Shown: positions 2,612 to 18,738 of the stretch, piece after piece | Position numbering within the stretch: the stretch's first letter is position 1 | Layout of the letters: the number at the start of each line of letters is the position of its first letter | IMG/VR virus record: IMGVR_UViG_2671180747_000001 | DNA length: 18,738 nt | Reading direction: 5' to 3' (one strand) | Source: a virus | Lineage: Duplodnaviria; Heunggongvirae; Uroviricota; Caudoviricetes | Position numbers and translations under genes: made by a program | The notes under the pieces: model-generated | Seen by the model: the letters and a program-made list of their open reading frames with translations, nothing else | Databases searched by the model: none | Told to the model about the DNA's origin: nothing

Positions 2612-2707
2612 TCATGACGGAATAAAAATTCTGAATATCTTCACATTTTCACAAACTGACTGTGGCGCTGATAATTTCGCTGCGTTAGTGTTTTTTTGCC
2701 GTGACAT
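2612..2707 (-). CDS. Hypothetical small protein (31 aa, MSRQKNTNAAKLSAPQSVCENVKIFRIFIPS) in an AT-rich insert between I and J; possible moron
   Basis: ATG at 2707, stop TGA at 2612-2614. Consensus Shine-Dalgarno AAGGAG (plus-strand 'ctcctt' 2717-2722) with a 9-nt spacer. Sits in a ~240 bp AT-rich gap. No homology recognised; below the ORF-track size cut-off. Confidence 0.3.
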   Translation of the reverse strand: MSRQKNTNAAKLSAPQSVCENVKIFRIFIPS

Positions 2708-2791: not shown

Positions 2792-3470
2792 ACCCCTGCC
2801 GTCCGATAACCACCACTTTCCCGTCACCGCCTTCATCACGGGTGCTGATGTCCTGGGATATCCGTCGTGAACCAACCAGCATTTCACCGTAAGGCACCGG
2901 CATCGGGTTACCCTGGGCAATCATGTTATCCAGCGAGGAAAAGTACGTGTTCTGTCTGCCGTTATCCGTTGCGCGGTAATCCGGTGTTTTTGCCTTCGGG
3001 GCCAGCATCTGGGCCACACCGCCCAGAATCATGCTGGCACCCAGTGAAAACAGCATCGTGGTGGCAGAAAAACCACCGGCTGCCAGGGCTGAACCCCATA
3101 ACGCCATCGTGGCTCCGGCCGTGAAGAACGACCCCACGATGGCCGCCGCCCCCAGCACAATCTGCAGTCCGCCCTTTCCGGCACCGGCCAGTCGCGGCAC
3201 AATGTGGATGACCGTTCCCTCACCCAGCTGTTCGTGAAGGCGGGCATACACCGCCTCCGGTGCCGTGTCCTCACCGGCAATACGTATCTGGTACCAGCCT
3301 TCGTTCATCTGACGGCGAAAGCCCGGCACCTGCATCGACAGTGCGCGGATGGCTTCCGCTGCCGTGTTCACATACAGGCTGAGGCGGCGGCCAAATCGTT
3401 GTAAATCCCCGTGAAGGCAGATGCGTGCCAGTGGCGGTGACGCCAGACTGAATGCGTTCGTCGTTGCCAT
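2790..3470 (-). CDS. I: Tail tip assembly protein (lambda I-like)
   Basis: 226-aa ORF. N-terminus MATTNAFSLASPPLARICLHGDLQRFGRRL... resembles lambda gpI (MAATHTLPLASPGMARICLYGDLQRFGRR... from memory). Lies between K and J as in lambda. Confidence 0.9.
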   Translation of the reverse strand: MATTNAFSLASPPLARICLHGDLQRFGRRLSLYVNTAAEAIRALSMQVPGFRRQMNEGWYQIRIAGEDTAPEAVYARLHEQLGEGTVIHIVPRLAGAGKGGLQIVLGAAAIVGSFFTAGATMALWGSALAAGGFSATTMLFSLGASMILGGVAQMLAPKAKTPDYRATDNGRQNTYFSSLDNMIAQGNPMPVPYGEMLVGSRRISQDISTRDEGGDGKVVVIGRQG

Positions 3471-4111
3471 TTTTCGGAATACCTCTCCCGTTTACTCAGT
3501 TGTTCAGGCAGATGGTGAAGCAGTTCACCGTTGCCGCAGTAAATGGCGGCATGGTTGGCCACCGATGCGCCAAAGCAGCACAGCAGAATATCGCCCGCCT
3601 GTGCAGAGGACAGGGGCACCCGGTAAAAGCCCGTGGCCTCCATATTGTCCAGGTACAGGTTCTGGCCGTTGCGCCACCACTCATCCTCGCGGTGAAAATC
3701 CGGCATTTCAGTCCCCGCCAGATGGTATGCATCCCGGAACAGCGTGTAACAGTCCGTCACCCCGTGCGCAAAGCGCCGTCCGGTCAGGTGCGGAACGCAG
3801 CGGAATTTGTGAATGTCACCCCGGCAGACCAGCCACCAGGGCAGGGCACTTTTTATCTGCAGCCGCCGGTCAGCCTCGCTCAGCCAGGGCAGCCCACCGG
3901 GATGACTGTGGACCAGTGCCACAATCTCCCCCTGCATCTCTGCCCGCAGCCAGTCTTCCGGTGCGATACGAAAATACGCCTCCGGCTCTGCGGAAATATT
4001 CACACAAGGGATATACCGCTCCCCCTCCGGCGTGCTTATCACGAAGCCGCACGACTCCGCAGGCGCACACCGCCGGGCATGTGCCAGAATCGCTGATTCA
4101 GTCTGTGTCAT
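3368..4111 (-). CDS. K: Tail tip assembly protein (lambda K-like), with JAB/MPN metalloprotease and NlpC/P60 cysteine-peptidase motifs
   Basis: Start refined to the ATG at 4111 (MTQTESAILAHARRCAPAESCGF...), 10 nt after L; the ORF-track start at 4372 would overlap L. JAMM motif HSHPGGLPWLSEAD and NlpC/P60-type DCYTL...H are visible. 3' end overlaps I by ~100 nt, as K/I do in lambda. Confidence 0.85.
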   Translation of the reverse strand: MTQTESAILAHARRCAPAESCGFVISTPEGERYIPCVNISAEPEAYFRIAPEDWLRAEMQGEIVALVHSHPGGLPWLSEADRRLQIKSALPWWLVCRGDIHKFRCVPHLTGRRFAHGVTDCYTLFRDAYHLAGTEMPDFHREDEWWRNGQNLYLDNMEATGFYRVPLSSAQAGDILLCCFGASVANHAAIYCGNGELLHHLPEQLSKRERYSEKWQRRTHSVWRHRHWHASAFTGIYNDLAAASACM

Positions 4112-4121
4112 AAACCGGGAT

Positions 4122-4820
4122 TTACTGCGAAAGTTTATTAATGGAAAGGAAACCGCCAAAATTGCCGACATTCCTGCGCAGTTCACACCCGCGCATGCAC
4201 TTGCTGCATCTGTCCTTACGGATATCGGTGGTGGGTTTATCGAACTCATCCGCCACCGCCCCGCCCGTGTAACCACACTCATCAGAGCGGTAGGTCCACA
4301 TACAGGTGTTCGCCAGCATGATGCGGCCGGGAAACAAAGCACCGTCCGTCTCGGTCGGTGTGGCCAGCACAAACGAGGCCGTCATGGCCGTCAGCGCTGA
4401 CATCTGCTCCACCACCCACCGGTCCGTCAGCTCCTGCTCCGGGTCTGCCTCAGGATTGCCTGCCACAAAGTTCACCGCATCCAGAAAACGCGCATACACC
4501 CGGCGGCGGACCACCGTGGCACCCACCAGGCTCTGCAAATCCTCCGCCATCCCGGTGACAAGGCCAAACAGATTGGACACCGTCAGCGACGGGCGGGCAC
4601 TGCTGCCCTTTCCGTTCATCTCAAAGCCGCTGCCCTCAATCGGGTACGCCTCATACTTCCGCCCCTGCCAGGTCACCGGCTCCCCTTTTTCATTCAGCTC
4701 ATTGCAGAAAAAATACCGCTCACCGCCCTGCACCGTCAGGTCGATTTCCCAGAGCACCACCCGCGGTGACTGCTCTGACTTAACCGACTCGTTCAGGCTT
4801 GCTTCGTGAATATCCTGCAT
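4122..4820 (-). CDS. L: Tail tip protein (lambda L-like)
   Basis: 232-aa ORF, same length as lambda gpL. Cys-rich C-terminus (CGYTGG...CSKCMRGC). Position between M and K. Confidence 0.9.
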   Translation of the reverse strand: MQDIHEASLNESVKSEQSPRVVLWEIDLTVQGGERYFFCNELNEKGEPVTWQGRKYEAYPIEGSGFEMNGKGSSARPSLTVSNLFGLVTGMAEDLQSLVGATVVRRRVYARFLDAVNFVAGNPEADPEQELTDRWVVEQMSALTAMTASFVLATPTETDGALFPGRIMLANTCMWTYRSDECGYTGGAVADEFDKPTTDIRKDRCSKCMRGCELRRNVGNFGGFLSINKLSQ

Positions 4821-7725: not shown

Positions 7726-8577
7726 ATCTCACACCTCCGGAAATCCCCGCTGAAGCCATCATTAATGCAACATCATCCTCGCTGACATCCACCACATCTG
7801 CAGAAGGTGAAATATCGCCCCCTCCCTCCCCACCGAACCGGACGCCTCCGGCAAGTCCTGCCGCTTTCTGCATCAGCATGTCTTCCTCATCCGGCATCTC
7901 CGTCTGCGCTTCCTCTCGCCGGGGAGCCAGCAGACTGAAATCCGAGGGATGCATATCCGGATCGCAAAAAAACAGGCTGAGTACGGCGTACATCAGCCCG
8001 GAAAAATGCATATCCAGTTGGGTATCCTGAAAATAATGCGTGCGGTAAAAATGTCGCCAGTCGGCATATTCGGTGGATGTCATCCCGGCAAGCATGGCGC
8101 GCCAGTCAGGCCTCCCCATCTCACGCGCCAGTCTGAGGGCAAAATTCAGCTCGCCGTCGAAAACTTTCCCGCAGAAAAATCATCATCAGTAAGCGCGTTA
8201 TTTTTCGCCACTTCGGTGCTGTCAGTATCCGCATGAACAGCCCCGCTCATCCCGGACAGACGTAACACCACCTCTTCCGCCCGGGCAATGGCATCGGCAG
8301 GCCAGGTGGTGAGCACTTCCTGCTCTATCTTCATCACGGCCTCATTCATTGACGGTGACTGCGTTTTCTGTGGATGGTTATGCCACAGGGACATCGCCAC
8401 CAGAAACGCGCCGGTTCTGACAAGATCTTCCACACTCACCTGCAGGTTGCCGCTGGCTTCAGCCTCTTCTGCCCGCCGTTTCAGGAGGGCAAGATGCTCA
8501 ATACGCTGCAGCGCAGACAGCTCAGAAAGCATGACGGATACACCGTTATATTCAAATTGTTCTGTTTTCAGAAACAT
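7706..8577 (-). CDS. T: Tail assembly chaperone G-T fusion made by a programmed -1 ribosomal frameshift at the G GGA AAG heptamer (8164-8170)
   Basis: G frame has codon first bases at 0 mod 3 and the T frame at 1 mod 3, i.e. -1 on the minus strand. After the slip the T frame reads GKVFDGELNFALRLAREMGRPDWRAMLAG..., matching the lambda gpGT junction. The T frame has no plausible independent start with an RBS. Confidence 0.75.
8146..8577 (-). CDS. G: Tail assembly chaperone (lambda G-like)
   Basis: 143-aa ORF. MFLKTEQFEYNGVSVMLSELSALQRIEHLALLKRRAEEAE...AMSLWHNHPQKTQ matches lambda gpG. Confidence 0.9.
   Translation of the reverse strand: MFLKTEQFEYNGVSVMLSELSALQRIEHLALLKRRAEEAEASGNLQVSVEDLVRTGAFLVAMSLWHNHPQKTQSPSMNEAVMKIEQEVLTTWPADAIARAEEVVLRLSGMSGAVHADTDSTEVAKNNALTDDDFSAGKFSTAS
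8164..8170 (-). other. Slippery heptanucleotide G GGA AAG for the G-T -1 frameshift
   Basis: Plus-strand 'ctttccc' 8164-8170 is the reverse complement of GGGAAAG, in the zero frame of G, 16 nt upstream of the G stop codon. Same heptamer and position as in lambda. Confidence 0.75.
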
Positions 8578-14048: not shown

Positions 14049-15630
14049 GTGGTGTTGTCTCCTCTTCCGGCCTGCGACTCTCCGCTATCTGCTGCTGATA
14101 CGCCTGCGCTATCCACACCGGACGTGAGAGTCCGGCTTTTTCCCGCTCTGCAGATTCCCTGACCTGCTGGCGGAAAATGTCCTGATAATCCTCGCCCATC
14201 AGCGCCAGCTCTTTCTCATACGTGCTCAGTCCGGAATCAATACGCATCACCGATTCCTGAACCTCCTTGAGCCCGTCAATGGCCATTCTTCCGGCACCAA
14301 TCCACTCAGCCCGTGACCAGGCTGAACGCGCCTGATAAAAATCAAAACGTGCCCGTGGCGGACGAATAATCCCCCGAAGAAGTGCCTCTTCCAGCCAGCA
14401 GGAAAACATCTGCGTGGCCAGCCGGGCCGCAATAAATTTTCGCCGCCCCATAAAATAGCGCCACGACTCATTGGCGGAGGCGCGGGCACTTGAGTAACTG
14501 ACCTTCGAGTAATCACGGGACAACTGTTCGTAGGAAACGCCAAGACCGGCAGCGATATACCGCAGCAGCGCCTGTTCAAGCGCCGAAAATCCATTGTCTG
14601 AATCCTGCGCGGTCTGAAGTTTCAGATCATCACCAGGGAAAAGGTGCGGAATTTTGACACCGCCCAGCGTCACGCTATTCGTGTCATACCAGGTGGAGAA
14701 CTTATCCAGAATATTAATAAGCGGATTATCCTTCTGCCCCTGCGGCGCACCGGCGATATATTCAAAGGCCTTTTCGGTATCAAGTTCACTTTCAATCGTC
14801 GCTGCATACATGGCTTTAACAATGGCCGACTGAAGCTGTGTTGCCTGCAGGGAATCGAGCATCTTCAGCCGTTCCATGACGCTGTAAAACTGGTTGGCCC
14901 CACGGGTCTGCCCGTCCTCCACCGGCTCGAAAATATGCAGCATGGCCGGACGCCCGGTGGGAAGTTCACGCGGGATCCGTTCCCATCGTCCACTCCCGGA
15001 GCGAGGAAAATCATCCTCACAGATATGGTACGCAACGGCACGGCCATATCGATCAACCTCCACCCCGGCCCGCAGAAAACGGTTCCCGATACCGTGTCCT
15101 GGCGTGTCCACCCGTTTCGGACTCACGGCTTTAAAACGCGTACGAAACAGTTGCGTGCTCTCCGTATCCCAGACCGGCTGCACAAAGATTTCGCCGTTAA
15201 ACGCATGAACGCCCACACCTTCACGGATAAATTCCGTAAACGTGCGTTTCCCTTCCACGTCGATCTCACCAAACATCCCTTCTGCGTATTCTGACCAGGC
15301 CGCCTCCACCTCATCGACAAAACTTTTTGCCGCGGTCTCCCGCATCCCCAGCCAGCGCCAGTTCGGACGGTAGCTAATCAGAAACATATGCCCGACAATG
15401 TGATCCTTATGCAGGGCCACCGCATTGGCCGCTATTCCGTTATTGCGCACCAGATCATCTGCACGGGCATTCCCCAGACGCAACGCGGGCAGCAGGGCCG
15501 CATCGGCACTCTGCGAGGGTGGCAACCACTCTGCCATTTGCCCGCCAAATCCTGCACCGCCCCCGTTGTAGCTGAGGCTCTCCCGAAGCGGAACGCCGTT
15601 CACATCAATCAGGACAGGCTTTCGTTTCAT
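14038..15630 (-). CDS. B: Portal protein (lambda B-like)
   Basis: 530-aa ORF (lambda gpB is 533 aa). ...FEPVEDGQTRGANQFYSVMERLKMLDSLQATQLQSAIVKAMYAATIESELDT...YEQLSRDYSKVSYSSARASANESW... matches lambda gpB. Confidence 0.95.
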   Translation of the reverse strand: MKRKPVLIDVNGVPLRESLSYNGGGAGFGGQMAEWLPPSQSADAALLPALRLGNARADDLVRNNGIAANAVALHKDHIVGHMFLISYRPNWRWLGMRETAAKSFVDEVEAAWSEYAEGMFGEIDVEGKRTFTEFIREGVGVHAFNGEIFVQPVWDTESTQLFRTRFKAVSPKRVDTPGHGIGNRFLRAGVEVDRYGRAVAYHICEDDFPRSGSGRWERIPRELPTGRPAMLHIFEPVEDGQTRGANQFYSVMERLKMLDSLQATQLQSAIVKAMYAATIESELDTEKAFEYIAGAPQGQKDNPLINILDKFSTWYDTNSVTLGGVKIPHLFPGDDLKLQTAQDSDNGFSALEQALLRYIAAGLGVSYEQLSRDYSKVSYSSARASANESWRYFMGRRKFIAARLATQMFSCWLEEALLRGIIRPPRARFDFYQARSAWSRAEWIGAGRMAIDGLKEVQESVMRIDSGLSTYEKELALMGEDYQDIFRQQVRESAEREKAGLSRPVWIAQAYQQQIAESRRPEEETTPRET

Positions 15631-15833
15631 AACCTCACTCCCAGCGGACGACGGCGACGGCGGGTTGTCCCCAGTACCAACTCAGCATCATTGATCGCCC
15701 GGTTAAGCTCATCCAGAGAGGCCGCCGTATATTCAATTCTGCGACCATCTTTCTGGACAGACACCACCCGTTTACCGGTTAATAAATCAAGGCGCGCCTG
15801 ACGCAGCGCCTGCAGTTCAGCGACTGTAACCAT
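15627..15833 (-). CDS. W: Head-tail joining protein (lambda W-like)
   Basis: 68-aa ORF, same length as lambda gpW. ...LLTGKRVVSVQKDGRRIEYTAASLDEL...RRRRRP resembles lambda ([24 protein letters not shown]...). Start overlaps the end of A; stop overlaps the B start. Confidence 0.85.
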   Translation of the reverse strand: MVTVAELQALRQARLDLLTGKRVVSVQKDGRRIEYTAASLDELNRAINDAELVLGTTRRRRRPLGVRL

Positions 15834-17745
15834 TCACTCCTCCGGACAGCTTCGCTGCCAGTTCTTTAAGGGTTGGCCGGGTCGTCTCTTCTTCCCGGGA
15901 TTTTGCCAGTACAGCCAGATCAAGTTGCCAGCGTTGCACGGACACACGTAATGCCGCGTAGGCATACACCAGGCAGTCCAGCGCTTCGTTACGCCGCTTT
16001 TTGTTATCCCACAGCAGACGCATCTTTCCTTTTTCCCACTTCTCCACAAGCTCTTCCGCCACCAGTTGCTGCGCCTCTGTCTGCGAAAAAATCTCCGGAT
16101 CATCAGGAAAACGGATGGCATACGACGTGGCTTCATCCGCAGGCGTGGGATCGGCTTTCATACGGGCATAGAGAATTTCTTTTGCGGTGTCCGTCCCCAC
16201 TTCGCACAGATACACGCCCCGCTAATTGCGGGTTTTTGGCATGGTGATCACCGGCTTGCCATAAACAGATGCACCTTTTACCGGCAGCACCCGGAAAACA
16301 CCGTGTTTTTTTGACCTCTGATAGACAATTTCGCCATCGATCCCCCCGGTGTCCCAGCAGACACGGGAAATGGTCATTTCGGTTCCGTCTGCATGGCGGT
16401 ATTTTTTGTTGATCGCCACATCCACACGTAACAGCGTCTCTTCCTCATCGGGACGCCCCATAATGATGATTTTATCCACCAGAAAGGCTTCCTCTCCCGG
16501 AGCCCATCCCCAGACATACATCTCAAAACGGTTTCGCTGCGAGTCAATGCCCGCCGTCAGATAAACCACCCGGGAAGGCACCGCAGCCGTGTAACGCACA
16601 ACCTTATCCATCAGCACCTGGTGATCGAGTTTTTCGCCCACGGCCTCTTCCCAGGTCTCGCCCAGCGTGGTGTTCACAAAGGTTTTCAGGCCGTTGGGAT
16701 CTTTCAGTGCATCCAGCCAGTCATAGACAATCTGTACCCAGGTGGTGAACGGACTGTACGCCGTCCAGATATGGAATGTGATGGAGCGCGGCGGCGGAAT
16801 TTCATTATCCGCGGCGCTGAAAAACGTCAGACCGTCGCGGGTCCACATCCCCGTGTTTTCACAGATCCACCGCCCGTTGCTCTGGTCCAGTTCAGACTGA
16901 TGGATCACGCAGCCATGATGTTCACAGAGGTAGAAAACACTTTCGGGACTGTCCTTCTCCCATTTAAGGCCAAAAGGCGTGGACTCATCGCCAAATTTCA
17001 GATACTGCTCCTCCCCGCAGTGCGGGCAGGGCACATAAAAACGCATGAAATGTGCCGACTCGTTGGCCGCTTTTTCGATCTGGCAGGAGCCTTTTATTTT
17101 AGGCGTCGAGCCGCGAATGGATTTTGGCCATACCGAGCCCTCAATACGCTTATCCCCCAGCAGGGTTGGCGAGCCCTCTTTTTCGACATCCGGCTCGAAC
17201 GAGGAAAGTTCGTCATAGCAGACCACGTCCACGGATTTTTCACGGTAGTTTTTGGCGGCAGCGCCGCCCAGGCACCAGAAGCCCACACCCGATGAAAAGC
17301 GTTTCAGCGTGATGGTATTATCACGATGTTTACGTCCCAGCCAGGGAGAAAGTTTTTTCAGGCAGGGAACATCGCGAATCGTCGCCTCCACGTGAGACTT
17401 CATAAAATCTTCAGCGGCAGAATCCGTGGGCTGAAAAAGCAGACTGTTTCGGGATTTATGCTCAATAAAATACCCGGCGACTCCCAGCAACATCTTTGTA
17501 TAGCCAACACGGGCAGATTTAATCAGATTAACAGTCCGGATCTGATCATTCCCCATGCTGTTCATGATGGCGATCTGGAACGGCAGCGTTTTCCATTCTC
17601 CCTCACCATATGAAGATTCTTTAGGCAGATAATAATTTTGATCAGCCCATTCAACTGGCGTCACCGGCAATGCCCTTATCAGGGGCTGTAATGCTGTTGT
17701 GACAGCACTCATCATATTATTCAGTTGTTGCTCTGATATATTCAT
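15817..17745 (-). pseudogene. A: Terminase large subunit (lambda A-like) interrupted by an in-frame amber TAG at 16222-16224; otherwise intact and in frame along its full length
   Basis: Start ATG at 17745 (MNISEQQLNNMMSAVTTAL...; lambda starts MNISNSQ...). Reading the minus strand: ...GKPVITMPKTRN-TAG-RGVYLCEVGTDTAKE..., where lambda as I recall it has ...RNKNGVYLTEIGTDTAKE.... The downstream 132 codons (15817-16215) stay in the same frame and match the lambda gpA C-terminus. Span is 643 codons including both stops (lambda gpA is 641 aa). Confidence 0.85.
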
Positions 17746-18226
17746 CGAGTAAATCCGGTAATTTATCCCCCGCCCGCGCACACTGATTTGCCCCCTTCGC
17801 AATAAGGGTTTTCAGATGGTCAAGATGGCGCGGTGTTAAATCAGGAAACTGTCGCTGCATGGATAAAGGGATGGAATCAAGCGTACTGGATAACGCCATT
17901 GCCAGCTTGCTGAGGGCAAAAATACAGAACCCGGTGTCAATAAGTTTTCCTTTTGACACCTCATTTTTTAACTGCTGTGTAACAGCCTGTTCTGCTGTCA
18001 GTTCCCATCTGGCAATAAGCAATTTCTCCTCATAGTCGTCTTCGCTATCGCCATCAGGCACATCGTTTTTACTTCTTCTCAGATACGATATGTAAAAATC
18101 GCGCCAGGCATCCAGATCCAGTTGCCCTCGCTTATTCGATATCGGGGCACCCGGCAATTTCTGCAATCTGCGAAGCTGGCGATCGGTCAGACTTAAATGC
18201 CTGGCAACTTCAGTCTGCGTAGCCAC
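17717..18226 (-). CDS. nu1: Terminase small subunit (lambda Nu1-like C-terminal half; divergent N-terminal HTH DNA-binding domain)
   Basis: 169-aa ORF with a GTG start at 18224-18226 after GAGGTGAGGA. The C-terminal half (...TGFCIFALSKLAMALSSTLDSIPLSMQRQFPDLTPRHLDHLK...LPDLLDEYI) resembles lambda Nu1. The N-terminus (MATQTEVARHLSLTDRQLRRLQK...) is unlike lambda but HTH-like. Overlaps the A start by 29 nt. Confidence 0.8.
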   Translation of the reverse strand: MATQTEVARHLSLTDRQLRRLQKLPGAPISNKRGQLDLDAWRDFYISYLRRSKNDVPDGDSEDDYEEKLLIARWELTAEQAVTQQLKNEVSKGKLIDTGFCIFALSKLAMALSSTLDSIPLSMQRQFPDLTPRHLDHLKTLIAKGANQCARAGDKLPDLLDEYIRATTE

Positions 18227-18273: not shown

Positions 18274-18372
18274 CATGTCCGGTTTTAGTATCTATTTTTT
18301 GCGCATGTCCGGTTCATGGAAAGCATGTTTTTATATTTTTCATATGGTTAACTTGCAGAGAAACCGGACATG
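18274..18372. promoter_or_regulatory. cosB-like terminase small-subunit binding region: three copies of an 11-mer (CATGTCCGGTT at 18274-18284 and 18304-18314; inverted AACCGGACATG at 18362-18372) with an AT-rich spacer
   Basis: Repeats seen directly. They occupy the interval between cosN and the Nu1 start where lambda has its R3/R2/R1 elements. The first copy is part of a palindrome, aaaaccgg-tcatgt-ccggtttt (18265-18286). Confidence 0.5.
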
Positions 18373-18409
18373 GATCCCGGAAAATTTTCATAAATAGCGA
18401 AAACCCGCG

Positions 18410-18421
18410 AGGTCGCCGCCC
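18410..18421 (-). other. cosN cohesive-end site: 12-nt GGGCGGCGACCT on the minus strand, with the lambda-identical left end extending to about 18376
   Basis: Reverse complement of plus-strand 18376-18421 reads GGGCGGCGACCTCGCGGGTTTTCGCTATTTATGAAAATTTTCCGG, which matches the first ~46 nt of the mature lambda genome as I remember it; the sequence then diverges. Confidence 0.8.
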
Positions 18422-18451
18422 CGTAACGGGTCCATATGCCGGAAAGGACCC
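18422..18451. other. cosQ-side region just outside cosN, containing the inverted repeat gggtcc (18428-18433) / ggaccc (18446-18451)
   Basis: Location directly beyond the cohesive end on the right-end side of the phage genome. Inverted repeat seen directly; function inferred from position only. Confidence 0.3.
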
Positions 18452-18738
18452 GAGAAAATGATAATGGTTATCAGTTGCAACAAAATCCAGTTTCTTCCAC
18501 CATCGCACCTGACGAGCGACTATGAGGGGACAACGCCGCGCTCCGTTAACGCGGTAAACCCCGGTGTGCATCGTTTTTGATTATCCCCGCACACTCGCGC
18601 AGAGGAGTCTCCCTGTCGGGCTGCGGTCTCTGTTAATGCAGGAATACGGCGACGATACGGCGCATGGCTATGTCAGGCTGAAATGCCTTTATCAAATCCG
18701 GGTAACGCAATCTGCTCCAGCCTGTCCAGCCTTGCCAG

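Follow-up and report, generated by a model that had tools for sequence, protein, structure and literature searches.

The late operon and its terminase gene

The window, by which we mean the whole 18,738-nucleotide stretch of DNA that was analysed, contains a late operon in which cos, Nu1, A, W and B follow one another as they do in lambda. Eighteen complete genes other than that of the terminase large subunit (I, K, L, M, H, T, G, V, U, Z, FII, FI, E, D, C, B, W and Nu1) are without an internal stop, and an 845-codon fragment of J is likewise open. The preliminary description of this DNA, according to which every other structural gene looked intact and the stop codon discussed here might be the sole lesion of the operon, is thus borne out for the late operon within the window. 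The head genes of the prophage are of the PhiR12/21 type, and a G/T slippery heptamer, GGGAAAG, is present at positions 8164–8170. The features in and around the terminase genes are as follows.

15627–15833, minus strand: intact head–tail joining gene W, which shares its first 17 nt with the end of A and has GGAG ahead of its start.
15817–17745, minus strand: terminase large subunit gene of the lambda A (gpA) type, assigned from its translation, its 1-base difference from WP_024185493.1 and its Pfam GpA_ATPase and GpA_nuclease domains.
15817–16221, minus strand: orphaned C-terminal 134 codons and TGA, covering the remainder of the nuclease domain and the C-terminal tail.
16222–16224, minus strand: in-frame amber codon TAG at codon 508, with C>T at 16224 on the coding strand, assigned by comparison with relatives that have CAG.
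16218–16232: hairpin, read on the coding strand as CCCGC-AAT[C>T]A-GCGGG; the stem has 5 G+C base pairs and the loop 5 nt, of which the fourth is the mutated C.
16225–17745, minus strand: N-terminal frame of 507 codons, covering the Nu1-binding end, the whole ATPase domain and the first two thirds of the nuclease domain.
17717–18226, minus strand: intact gene for a Nu1-type terminase small subunit of 169 aa, which shares its last 29 nt with the start of A.
18274–18372, minus strand: cosB-like region, unlike lambda cosB, with three CCGGACATG repeats.
18377–18472, minus strand: cos core, conserved with lambda and nearly identical to it, containing both a cosQ-side block and a cosN/I2 block.

The 12-nt cohesive end, GGGCGGCGACCT, is found at 18410–18421, and the CCGGACATG repeats lie at 18364–18372 (inverted), 18304–18312 and 18274–18282.

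The large subunit gene extends from an ATG at 17745, taken as the start because it is so annotated in near-identical genomes, to a TGA at 15817–15819. The plus strand reads CTA at 16222–16224, giving an in-frame TAG on the minus strand (16224–16222), and this triplet is codon 508 of 642; all of the other codons are sense codons. Translation of 17850–15817 yields one continuous lambda-A-like protein with a single internal stop, the reading frame being open and the same upstream (16225–17745) and downstream (15817–16221) of the TAG, as the preliminary description had recognised. Its claim of collinearity with lambda A over some 641 codons also holds: the alignment with lambda gpA (641 aa) runs from end to end, with 421 of 646 columns identical (~65% protein identity). 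The sizes that it gave have to be revised. The predicted truncated terminase has 507 aa rather than ~526, the larger figure belonging to a mechanical ORF that begins at an upstream TTG at 17802, and the residues missing from the C-terminus are 508–642, that is, 135 and not ~115. Downstream of the TAG, a GTG at 16215 begins a 132-codon ORF that gene callers sometimes report. The terminase large subunit gene is a pseudogene in the lineage that carries it.

Ancestral codon and carriers of the stop

The intact genes that are nearly identical to that of the window all have CAG at codon 508. The gene of Escherichia coli STEC2018-607 (NZ_CP075697.1), which encodes the intact protein WP_024185493.1, differs from it at a single base in 1,986 nt, namely 16224, and the genes of phage PhiR12_1 and strain EC2 differ at two bases each, 16224 and one other. 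The first 507 residues of the terminase are 100% identical to those of the PhiR12_1 protein. A single-base nonsense change in an otherwise intact gene, as had been proposed, is confirmed by these comparisons, which indicate that a C>T transition on the coding strand turned CAG (Gln508) into TAG, and that the change was not from a lysine codon. The preliminary description was correct that lambda has lysine at this position (K508, AAA); for the present phage type, however, the ancestral codon is CAG. A UAG therefore stands in place of a sense codon within gene A, as in an amber mutant (CAG>TAG, codon 508).

The intact terminases of Escherichia phages PhiR12_1 to PhiR12_5 (PV340549–PV340554) and WP_024185493.1 have the same Nu1, W and B neighbours as the gene in the window; unlike it, they have CAG at codon 508 and are annotated as intact. 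The PhiR12 records were deposited as complete phage genomes with laboratory hosts (K-12 in the case of PhiR12_1; MG1655 and E. coli C are the hosts given for the group), which implies that their packaging works; a literature search on the PhiR12 phages found no primary source. Outside two mosaic patches, at 94–607 in J and 3240–3536 in I/K, the window and STEC2018-607 differ at four bases, 8727, 16224, 18290 and 18510, the first of which produces the substitution T206S in V.

An 81-mer centred on the TAG has no exact match in 5,426 complete E. coli genomes, in which the best matches are 80/81, at 1,966 places in 1,352 genomes. Nor was a TAG-containing 24-mer matched in GTDB species representatives, IMG/VR or metagenome contigs. 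With NNN in place of the codon, this 24-mer returned at least 120 loci in each of two viral/metagenome scans, and the codon is CAG in all 240 of the loci listed. When the three relatives are added, CAG is found in 243 of 243 pattern matches. At a recoding site the stop would be conserved among relatives, and among the 240 listed contigs it is not. The exact wild-type terminase protein is recorded on 245 contigs.

Carriers of the TAG were reached only indirectly, through the lineage-specific V protein and then through the 132-aa ORF downstream of the stop. Exact look-up of the V protein with T206S gave 20 contigs, among which three NCBI draft assemblies (GCA_028221905.1, GCA_016403925.1 and GCA_050854035.1) reach the terminase gene; in all three the A gene contains the TAG and is 100% identical to that of the window. 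No product is called between Nu1 and W in these assemblies, a gap of the kind left by a gene that has been annotated as a pseudogene. Look-up of the 132-aa ORF revealed the TAG in two Logan read assemblies, which are built directly from other sequencing runs: SRR13049242, whose contig is common to 15 samples, and SRR30292985. Over the part of the gene that they cover, both match the window at 100% identity. Exact look-up of the 507-aa product itself, and of the 519- and 526-aa versions with alternative starts, found nothing; the gene is an unannotated pseudogene in NCBI records and is cut in the Logan contigs. At two non-coding positions, 18290 and 18510, the window has changes not shared by the other carriers. 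The TAG is thus inherited within a set of E. coli isolates that are near-identical and presumably clonal.

The preliminary description had proposed a comparison of this codon in close relatives and had regarded a TAG frequent among them, accompanied by readthrough, as an argument against its reading. As it proves, STEC2018-607, PhiR12_1 and EC2 have CAG, and the TAG is confined to the clonal set and to one other type of contig, which is considered below; all of the remaining relatives sampled have CAG.

Expected consequences of the truncation

The position of the cut within the protein was mapped by Pfam profile coordinates and by an alignment of eight GpA-family terminases of 25–66% identity: the intact allele of STEC2018-607 and the proteins of lambda, two Pseudomonas phages, two Vibrio phages, a Roseobacter phage and a Chi-like phage. 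In the intact protein, GpA_ATPase spans residues 48–293 and GpA_nuclease residues 323–601 (profile positions 3–286). The ATPase domain (PF05876) is complete in the window, where residues 48–293 correspond to profile positions 4–247 of 247 (E = 2.7e-55). The nuclease domain (PF20454) is incomplete: residues 323–506 of the N-terminal product correspond to profile positions 3–190 of 294, and positions 202–287 are encoded after the TAG. On these profile matches, the locus is a member of the GpA-type terminases by descent, but a pseudogene. An NCBIfam search gave no match; a PDB sequence search with the intact protein also gave none, and there is no solved structure among the sequence relatives.

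Residues that are invariant in the nuclease domain across the eight aligned sequences are D401, Q403, G430, D465, G491, P503, K522, P547, R585, E587, D590 and Y594. The six from K522 onwards lie downstream of the stop, while the acidic residues D401 and D465 are kept. E587 and D590 form the acidic pair of an R-N-E-x-x-D motif, and with their loss the truncated product no longer has all of the invariant acidic residues of the nuclease centre. In the HK97 terminase, the residues for comparison are D302, D388 and D471 (PMC9410871). A literature search for lambda residue E586 found no primary source. By analogy, we infer that the truncated protein is without part of its active site.

In lambda, the extreme C-terminus of gpA binds the portal, and the mutation Aam42, a nonsense codon five codons from the end of A, leaves nicking intact, abolishes prohead binding and results in a very low yield; it is rescued in trans by A+ terminase (PMC4856287). 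Since the loss of five residues already blocks prohead binding, a truncation of 135 residues should be null, for cos cleavage as well as for prohead docking. The suggestion that the prohead-binding end had been lost is thus supported by the behaviour of Aam42, and one third of the nuclease domain has gone with it.

The phenotype that we would expect is drawn from lambda genetics at 65% protein identity. Translation would end after residue 507. The resulting product would still have the Nu1-binding end and the ATPase domain, but the final third of the RNase-H-like nuclease domain, with E587 and D590, would be missing, as would the C-terminus that binds the portal. An induced prophage would go through replication, assemble its proheads and tails and bring about lysis; it would neither nick cos nor dock DNA onto proheads, and no infectious particles would result. 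By itself, therefore, the prophage can probably not make infectious particles. Late transcription of the lambda type is antiterminated by Q, so that W, B and the genes after them should not suffer strong polarity.

Rescue could come only from terminase supplied in trans or from amber suppression. As cos and all of the structural genes have been kept, the prophage DNA could still be packaged with a helper terminase, and such an enzyme, of matching specificity for Nu1/cosB and the portal, might be provided by a co-resident lambdoid prophage. E. coli (STEC) genomes often hold several terminase genes of this kind, at up to 7 places per genome. By the other route, an amber suppressor would act on the TAG itself, and supE, which inserts Gln, would restore the wild-type protein exactly. 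We know of no suppressor host for this prophage.

Nature and origin of the mutation

We favour the view, to which we assign a probability of about 0.85, that the TAG is a genuine, vertically inherited nonsense mutation of Gln508 in a lambda-like E. coli prophage, and that it represents a recent loss of function in one clonal lineage. Most simply, it is an early step of prophage decay. The preliminary description had raised the possibility of a sequencing error, in which case the true sequence would be CAG and the gene intact. It is the case that the closest complete genome differs in the terminase gene at 16224 alone, and the fact that the window has two further substitutions of its own in a 0.5-kb non-coding stretch might be a sign of an assembly that was less well polished. 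The same TAG, however, occurs in three NCBI assemblies that were deposited separately and in two from Logan that derive from other runs, so that error is essentially excluded for the lineage. Moreover, 16224 is a substitution outside any homopolymer, whereas the possibly artefactual split-terminase calls elsewhere are all 1-nt indels, with no substitutions among them. A long-read error linked to Dam or Dcm motifs was also considered and discarded, since 16224 lies in neither GATC nor CCWGG. An error of sequencing or assembly is the least probable of the readings considered here and is extremely unlikely. It is also improbable, in our judgement, that the gene is still useful, through suppression by the host, near-cognate tRNA-Gln readthrough of UAG-C or a restart at GTG 16215 that would leave the protein in two pieces (1–507 and 511–642). 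The ancestral residue, Gln, is what supE or near-cognate readthrough would insert, and termination at UAG may be comparatively weak when a C comes next, so that some readthrough with Gln is possible. In addition, only 6 nt separate the stop from the GTG, the 132-aa ORF that begins there is called by annotators, none of the 19 natural late-gene stops in the window is TAG, so that suppression would not extend the late genes, and the rest of the operon is undecayed. Against these points, suppressor alleles are features of laboratory strains, and ARAGORN detected no tRNA gene when applied to the window, the related 48.6-kb prophage region and the contigs of the lineage, from which it follows that the element brings no suppressor of its own; no Rfam family matches the window. 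The GTG has no Shine–Dalgarno sequence at a workable distance, the stretch in question being the 3′ arm of the hairpin, and the split would fall inside the nuclease domain. The undecayed state of the operon is equally well explained by recency, the carriers being nearly identical, and the stop is absent from all of the sampled non-clonal relatives but one. As regards a stimulatory element of the kind found downstream of recoded stops, the only local structure is the 5-bp hairpin, which has the stop within its loop and is equally present in CAG alleles.

The one other type of contig with the stop bears on how the mutation arose. Logan contig SRR21507360_167 also has TAG at codon 508, in an A allele that is 94% identical to that of the window and lies among different neighbouring genes; the closest positions at which it departs from the window lie 40 nt away on the upstream side of the codon and 20 nt away on the downstream side, and the 507-aa product of this allele is recorded on two contigs. 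By its sequence, this looks like an independent occurrence. Recombination moving the TAG between the two backgrounds was considered and is unlikely, a tract of less than ~60 nt being needed. The hairpin at 16218–16232 has a predicted energy of −6.5 kcal/mol as single-stranded DNA (z ~ −2.5). Unpaired cytosines deaminate faster than paired ones and the mutated C lies in the predicted loop, which makes a local mutational hotspot at codon 508 plausible. The recurrence at this codon is nevertheless strongly driven by ascertainment, since look-up of the 132-aa ORF returns only lesions between M501 and V511, and within this segment Q508 is the sole codon that a transition can make a stop. In the terminase gene as a whole there are 59 transition-to-stop sites, and nonsense changes account for 4.3% of all possible substitutions. 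The recurrence has a further possible meaning, namely that inactivation was selected as a form of domestication, the host gaining from the loss of the terminase nuclease, either because the prophage is locked or because a moonlighting RNase is removed. The occurrence of the same CAG>TAG change in a second, 94%-identical A allele with different neighbours would fit such selection, as would the presence of the TAG allele in assemblies from several submitters and the report of the GpA-type nuclease domain of Gifsy-1 as a stress-induced tRNase (PMC11610961). If loss of function were selected, however, lesions would be expected at many sites rather than one; the recurrence was found by a look-up biased to codon 508, and a hotspot at a C in a hairpin loop explains it without selection. 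Furthermore, ~6% of the 164 full-length relatives that were evaluated are broken elsewhere by indels, which fits ordinary decay or assembly error. We consider selected inactivation to be very unlikely. Even less probable is a combination of these ideas in which codon 508 serves as a recurrent off switch, the loop C deaminating repeatedly and the resulting amber alleles being kept, with the host gaining a helper-dependent, satellite-like prophage or the loss of a nuclease or tRNase. The present E. coli terminase is not known to have tRNase activity.

A genuine nonsense mutation thus remains our preferred reading. Events of this kind are known: a lambda-type terminase gene has naturally become an amber pseudogene, which amounts to the ordinary disabling of a prophage. 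The amber (sus) mutants of lambda A, such as Aam42, likewise have a TAG in the gene for the large terminase subunit, within a late operon of the lambda type; Aam11 and Aam32 are further ambers in this gene. Aam42 also loses the portal-binding C-terminal end, and recessive, trans-complementable behaviour of the sort that it displays is expected here (PMC4856287). The allele in the window differs in that it arose naturally in a wild prophage, whereas the lambda A ambers were selected in the laboratory, and in that the truncation is of 135 aa rather than the 5 aa of Aam42; the Aam42 terminase nicks, while cos nicking by the product of the window allele should fail. In nature, this allele is what the classical lambda A ambers are in the laboratory, and in annotation the prophage is to be scored as packaging-defective despite a late operon that looks complete. 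In combination, the TAG and V T206S form a usable marker of one E. coli prophage lineage. A mutational hotspot, helper-dependent packaging and the loss of a side activity of the terminase are only hinted at by the data, and none of them would overturn current understanding. With respect to the last of these, Gifsy-1 GpA is described as a prophage terminase large subunit whose C-terminal nuclease domain cleaves tRNA-Leu (Uppalapati et al., as summarised in PMC11610961); in the window the nuclease domain is truncated, so that any tRNase activity would have been lost and not gained.

The defective lambdoid prophages of K-12 and O157-type strains also include point lesions in essential morphogenesis genes of otherwise complete prophages. 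In the window, a single clean substitution is the only damage across the 18.7 kb of late region, which points to a very early stage, whereas the other broken copies of the gene have indels. In the sampled viral and metagenome contigs, 167 full-length relatives were found and 164 evaluated; 154 of these are intact and 10 are broken, all by indels. Broken copies of this terminase gene are therefore not rare, and the present one is unusual only as a clean amber confirmed across assemblies. The other split terminases in the databases, such as those of O104:H4 2009EL-2050 and NCTC9112, keep the CAG and are interrupted by 1-nt indels, for example beside an A5 run at nt 1509.

Recurrence and setting of the amber codon

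The CAG>TAG change at codon 508 of A, the terminase large subunit gene, is also found in Logan contig SRR21507360_167 (locus L255), where the TAG lies at 4401–4403. The A allele of this contig is only 94% identical to that of the window, and its prophage context is different, Nu1 being preceded by P4_cII-like and Beta_protein genes. We conclude that the L255 amber is probably an independent recurrence. A 5-bp G+C hairpin at 16218–16232, which holds the mutated base in its loop, is conserved across the two TAG backgrounds and is shared by CAG alleles, and the loop is a possible deamination hotspot. The same hairpin was scored as terminator-like on the plus strand in a scan because a T-run comes after it.

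The natural stop codons of the 19 late genes in the window comprise 11 TGA and 8 TAA. The amber in A is the sole in-frame TAG of the operon; the absence of TAG among the 19 natural stops is statistically unremarkable.

Carriers of the TAG were located by means of a lineage marker in V, a Thr-to-Ser substitution at codon 206 (window 8727) that falls within the Ig-like (Big_2) C-terminal portion of the major tail protein. This substitution is common to all TAG carriers, and the 81-mer spanning it was matched exactly in none of the 276 complete-genome records covering at least 80% of the query.

Apparent frameshifts in the terminase and Rha-family genes

In many public records (loci L250–L254, L258 and L260–L269), among them O104:H4 2009EL-2050 (CP003297) and NCTC9112, the terminase gene appears as two calls. 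All of these loci have CAG at codon 508, and each is split by 1-nt indels, several of which are at or adjoining an A5 run at gene nucleotide 1509. These indels could reflect sequencing error in homopolymers, or the frameshifts could be genuine.

A Rha-family gene is placed between the lysis genes and cos, at about position 320 of locus L246, a site just past the window end at 18738, and at 33587–34125 of locus L245. It is frameshifted in the TAG-carrying assembly GCA_028221905.1, where an A6 run has become A5, and is likewise annotated as frameshifted in STEC2018-607, the closest complete genome; in GCA_050854035.1, also a TAG carrier, it is intact, with a 9-nt insertion near the gene end. The frameshift is either a second, variable lesion outside the structural operon or a homopolymer error.

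The cos region

The match to lambda is nearly perfect in cosN, I2 and the cosQ-side block, whereas cosB (18274–18372) is unlike its counterpart; three copies of CCGGACATG, one of them inverted, replace the lambda R sites. This dissimilarity would imply that Nu1 differs in specificity from that of lambda, and the cosB type would restrict the range of helper terminases able to act. Two substitutions in this region are private to the window:

18290, G>A, between two CCGGACATG repeats of cosB
18510, G>T, about 90 nt outside cosN

STEC2018-607 and the other three assemblies with the TAG have neither of them. The two sites are confined to 0.5 kb of non-coding DNA, while the 15-kb stretch is about 97% coding, an odd placement that is unexpected under random change.

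Mosaicism and the I–J gap

The window differs from the closest complete genome at 95 positions, 73 of them in 94–607 (J) and 18 in 3240–3536 (I/K), and is almost identical to it outside these patches. This two-patch pattern is typical lambdoid mosaicism. Genes I and J are separated by a 253-nt gap (2537–2789), which lambda is not known to have. It contains:

2612–2707, minus strand, a 31-codon open reading frame with AAGGAG and ATG
2578–2610, a terminator-like hairpin with a T-run, after the open reading frame

The content of the gap looks like a small moron, and STEC2018-607 also has this element.
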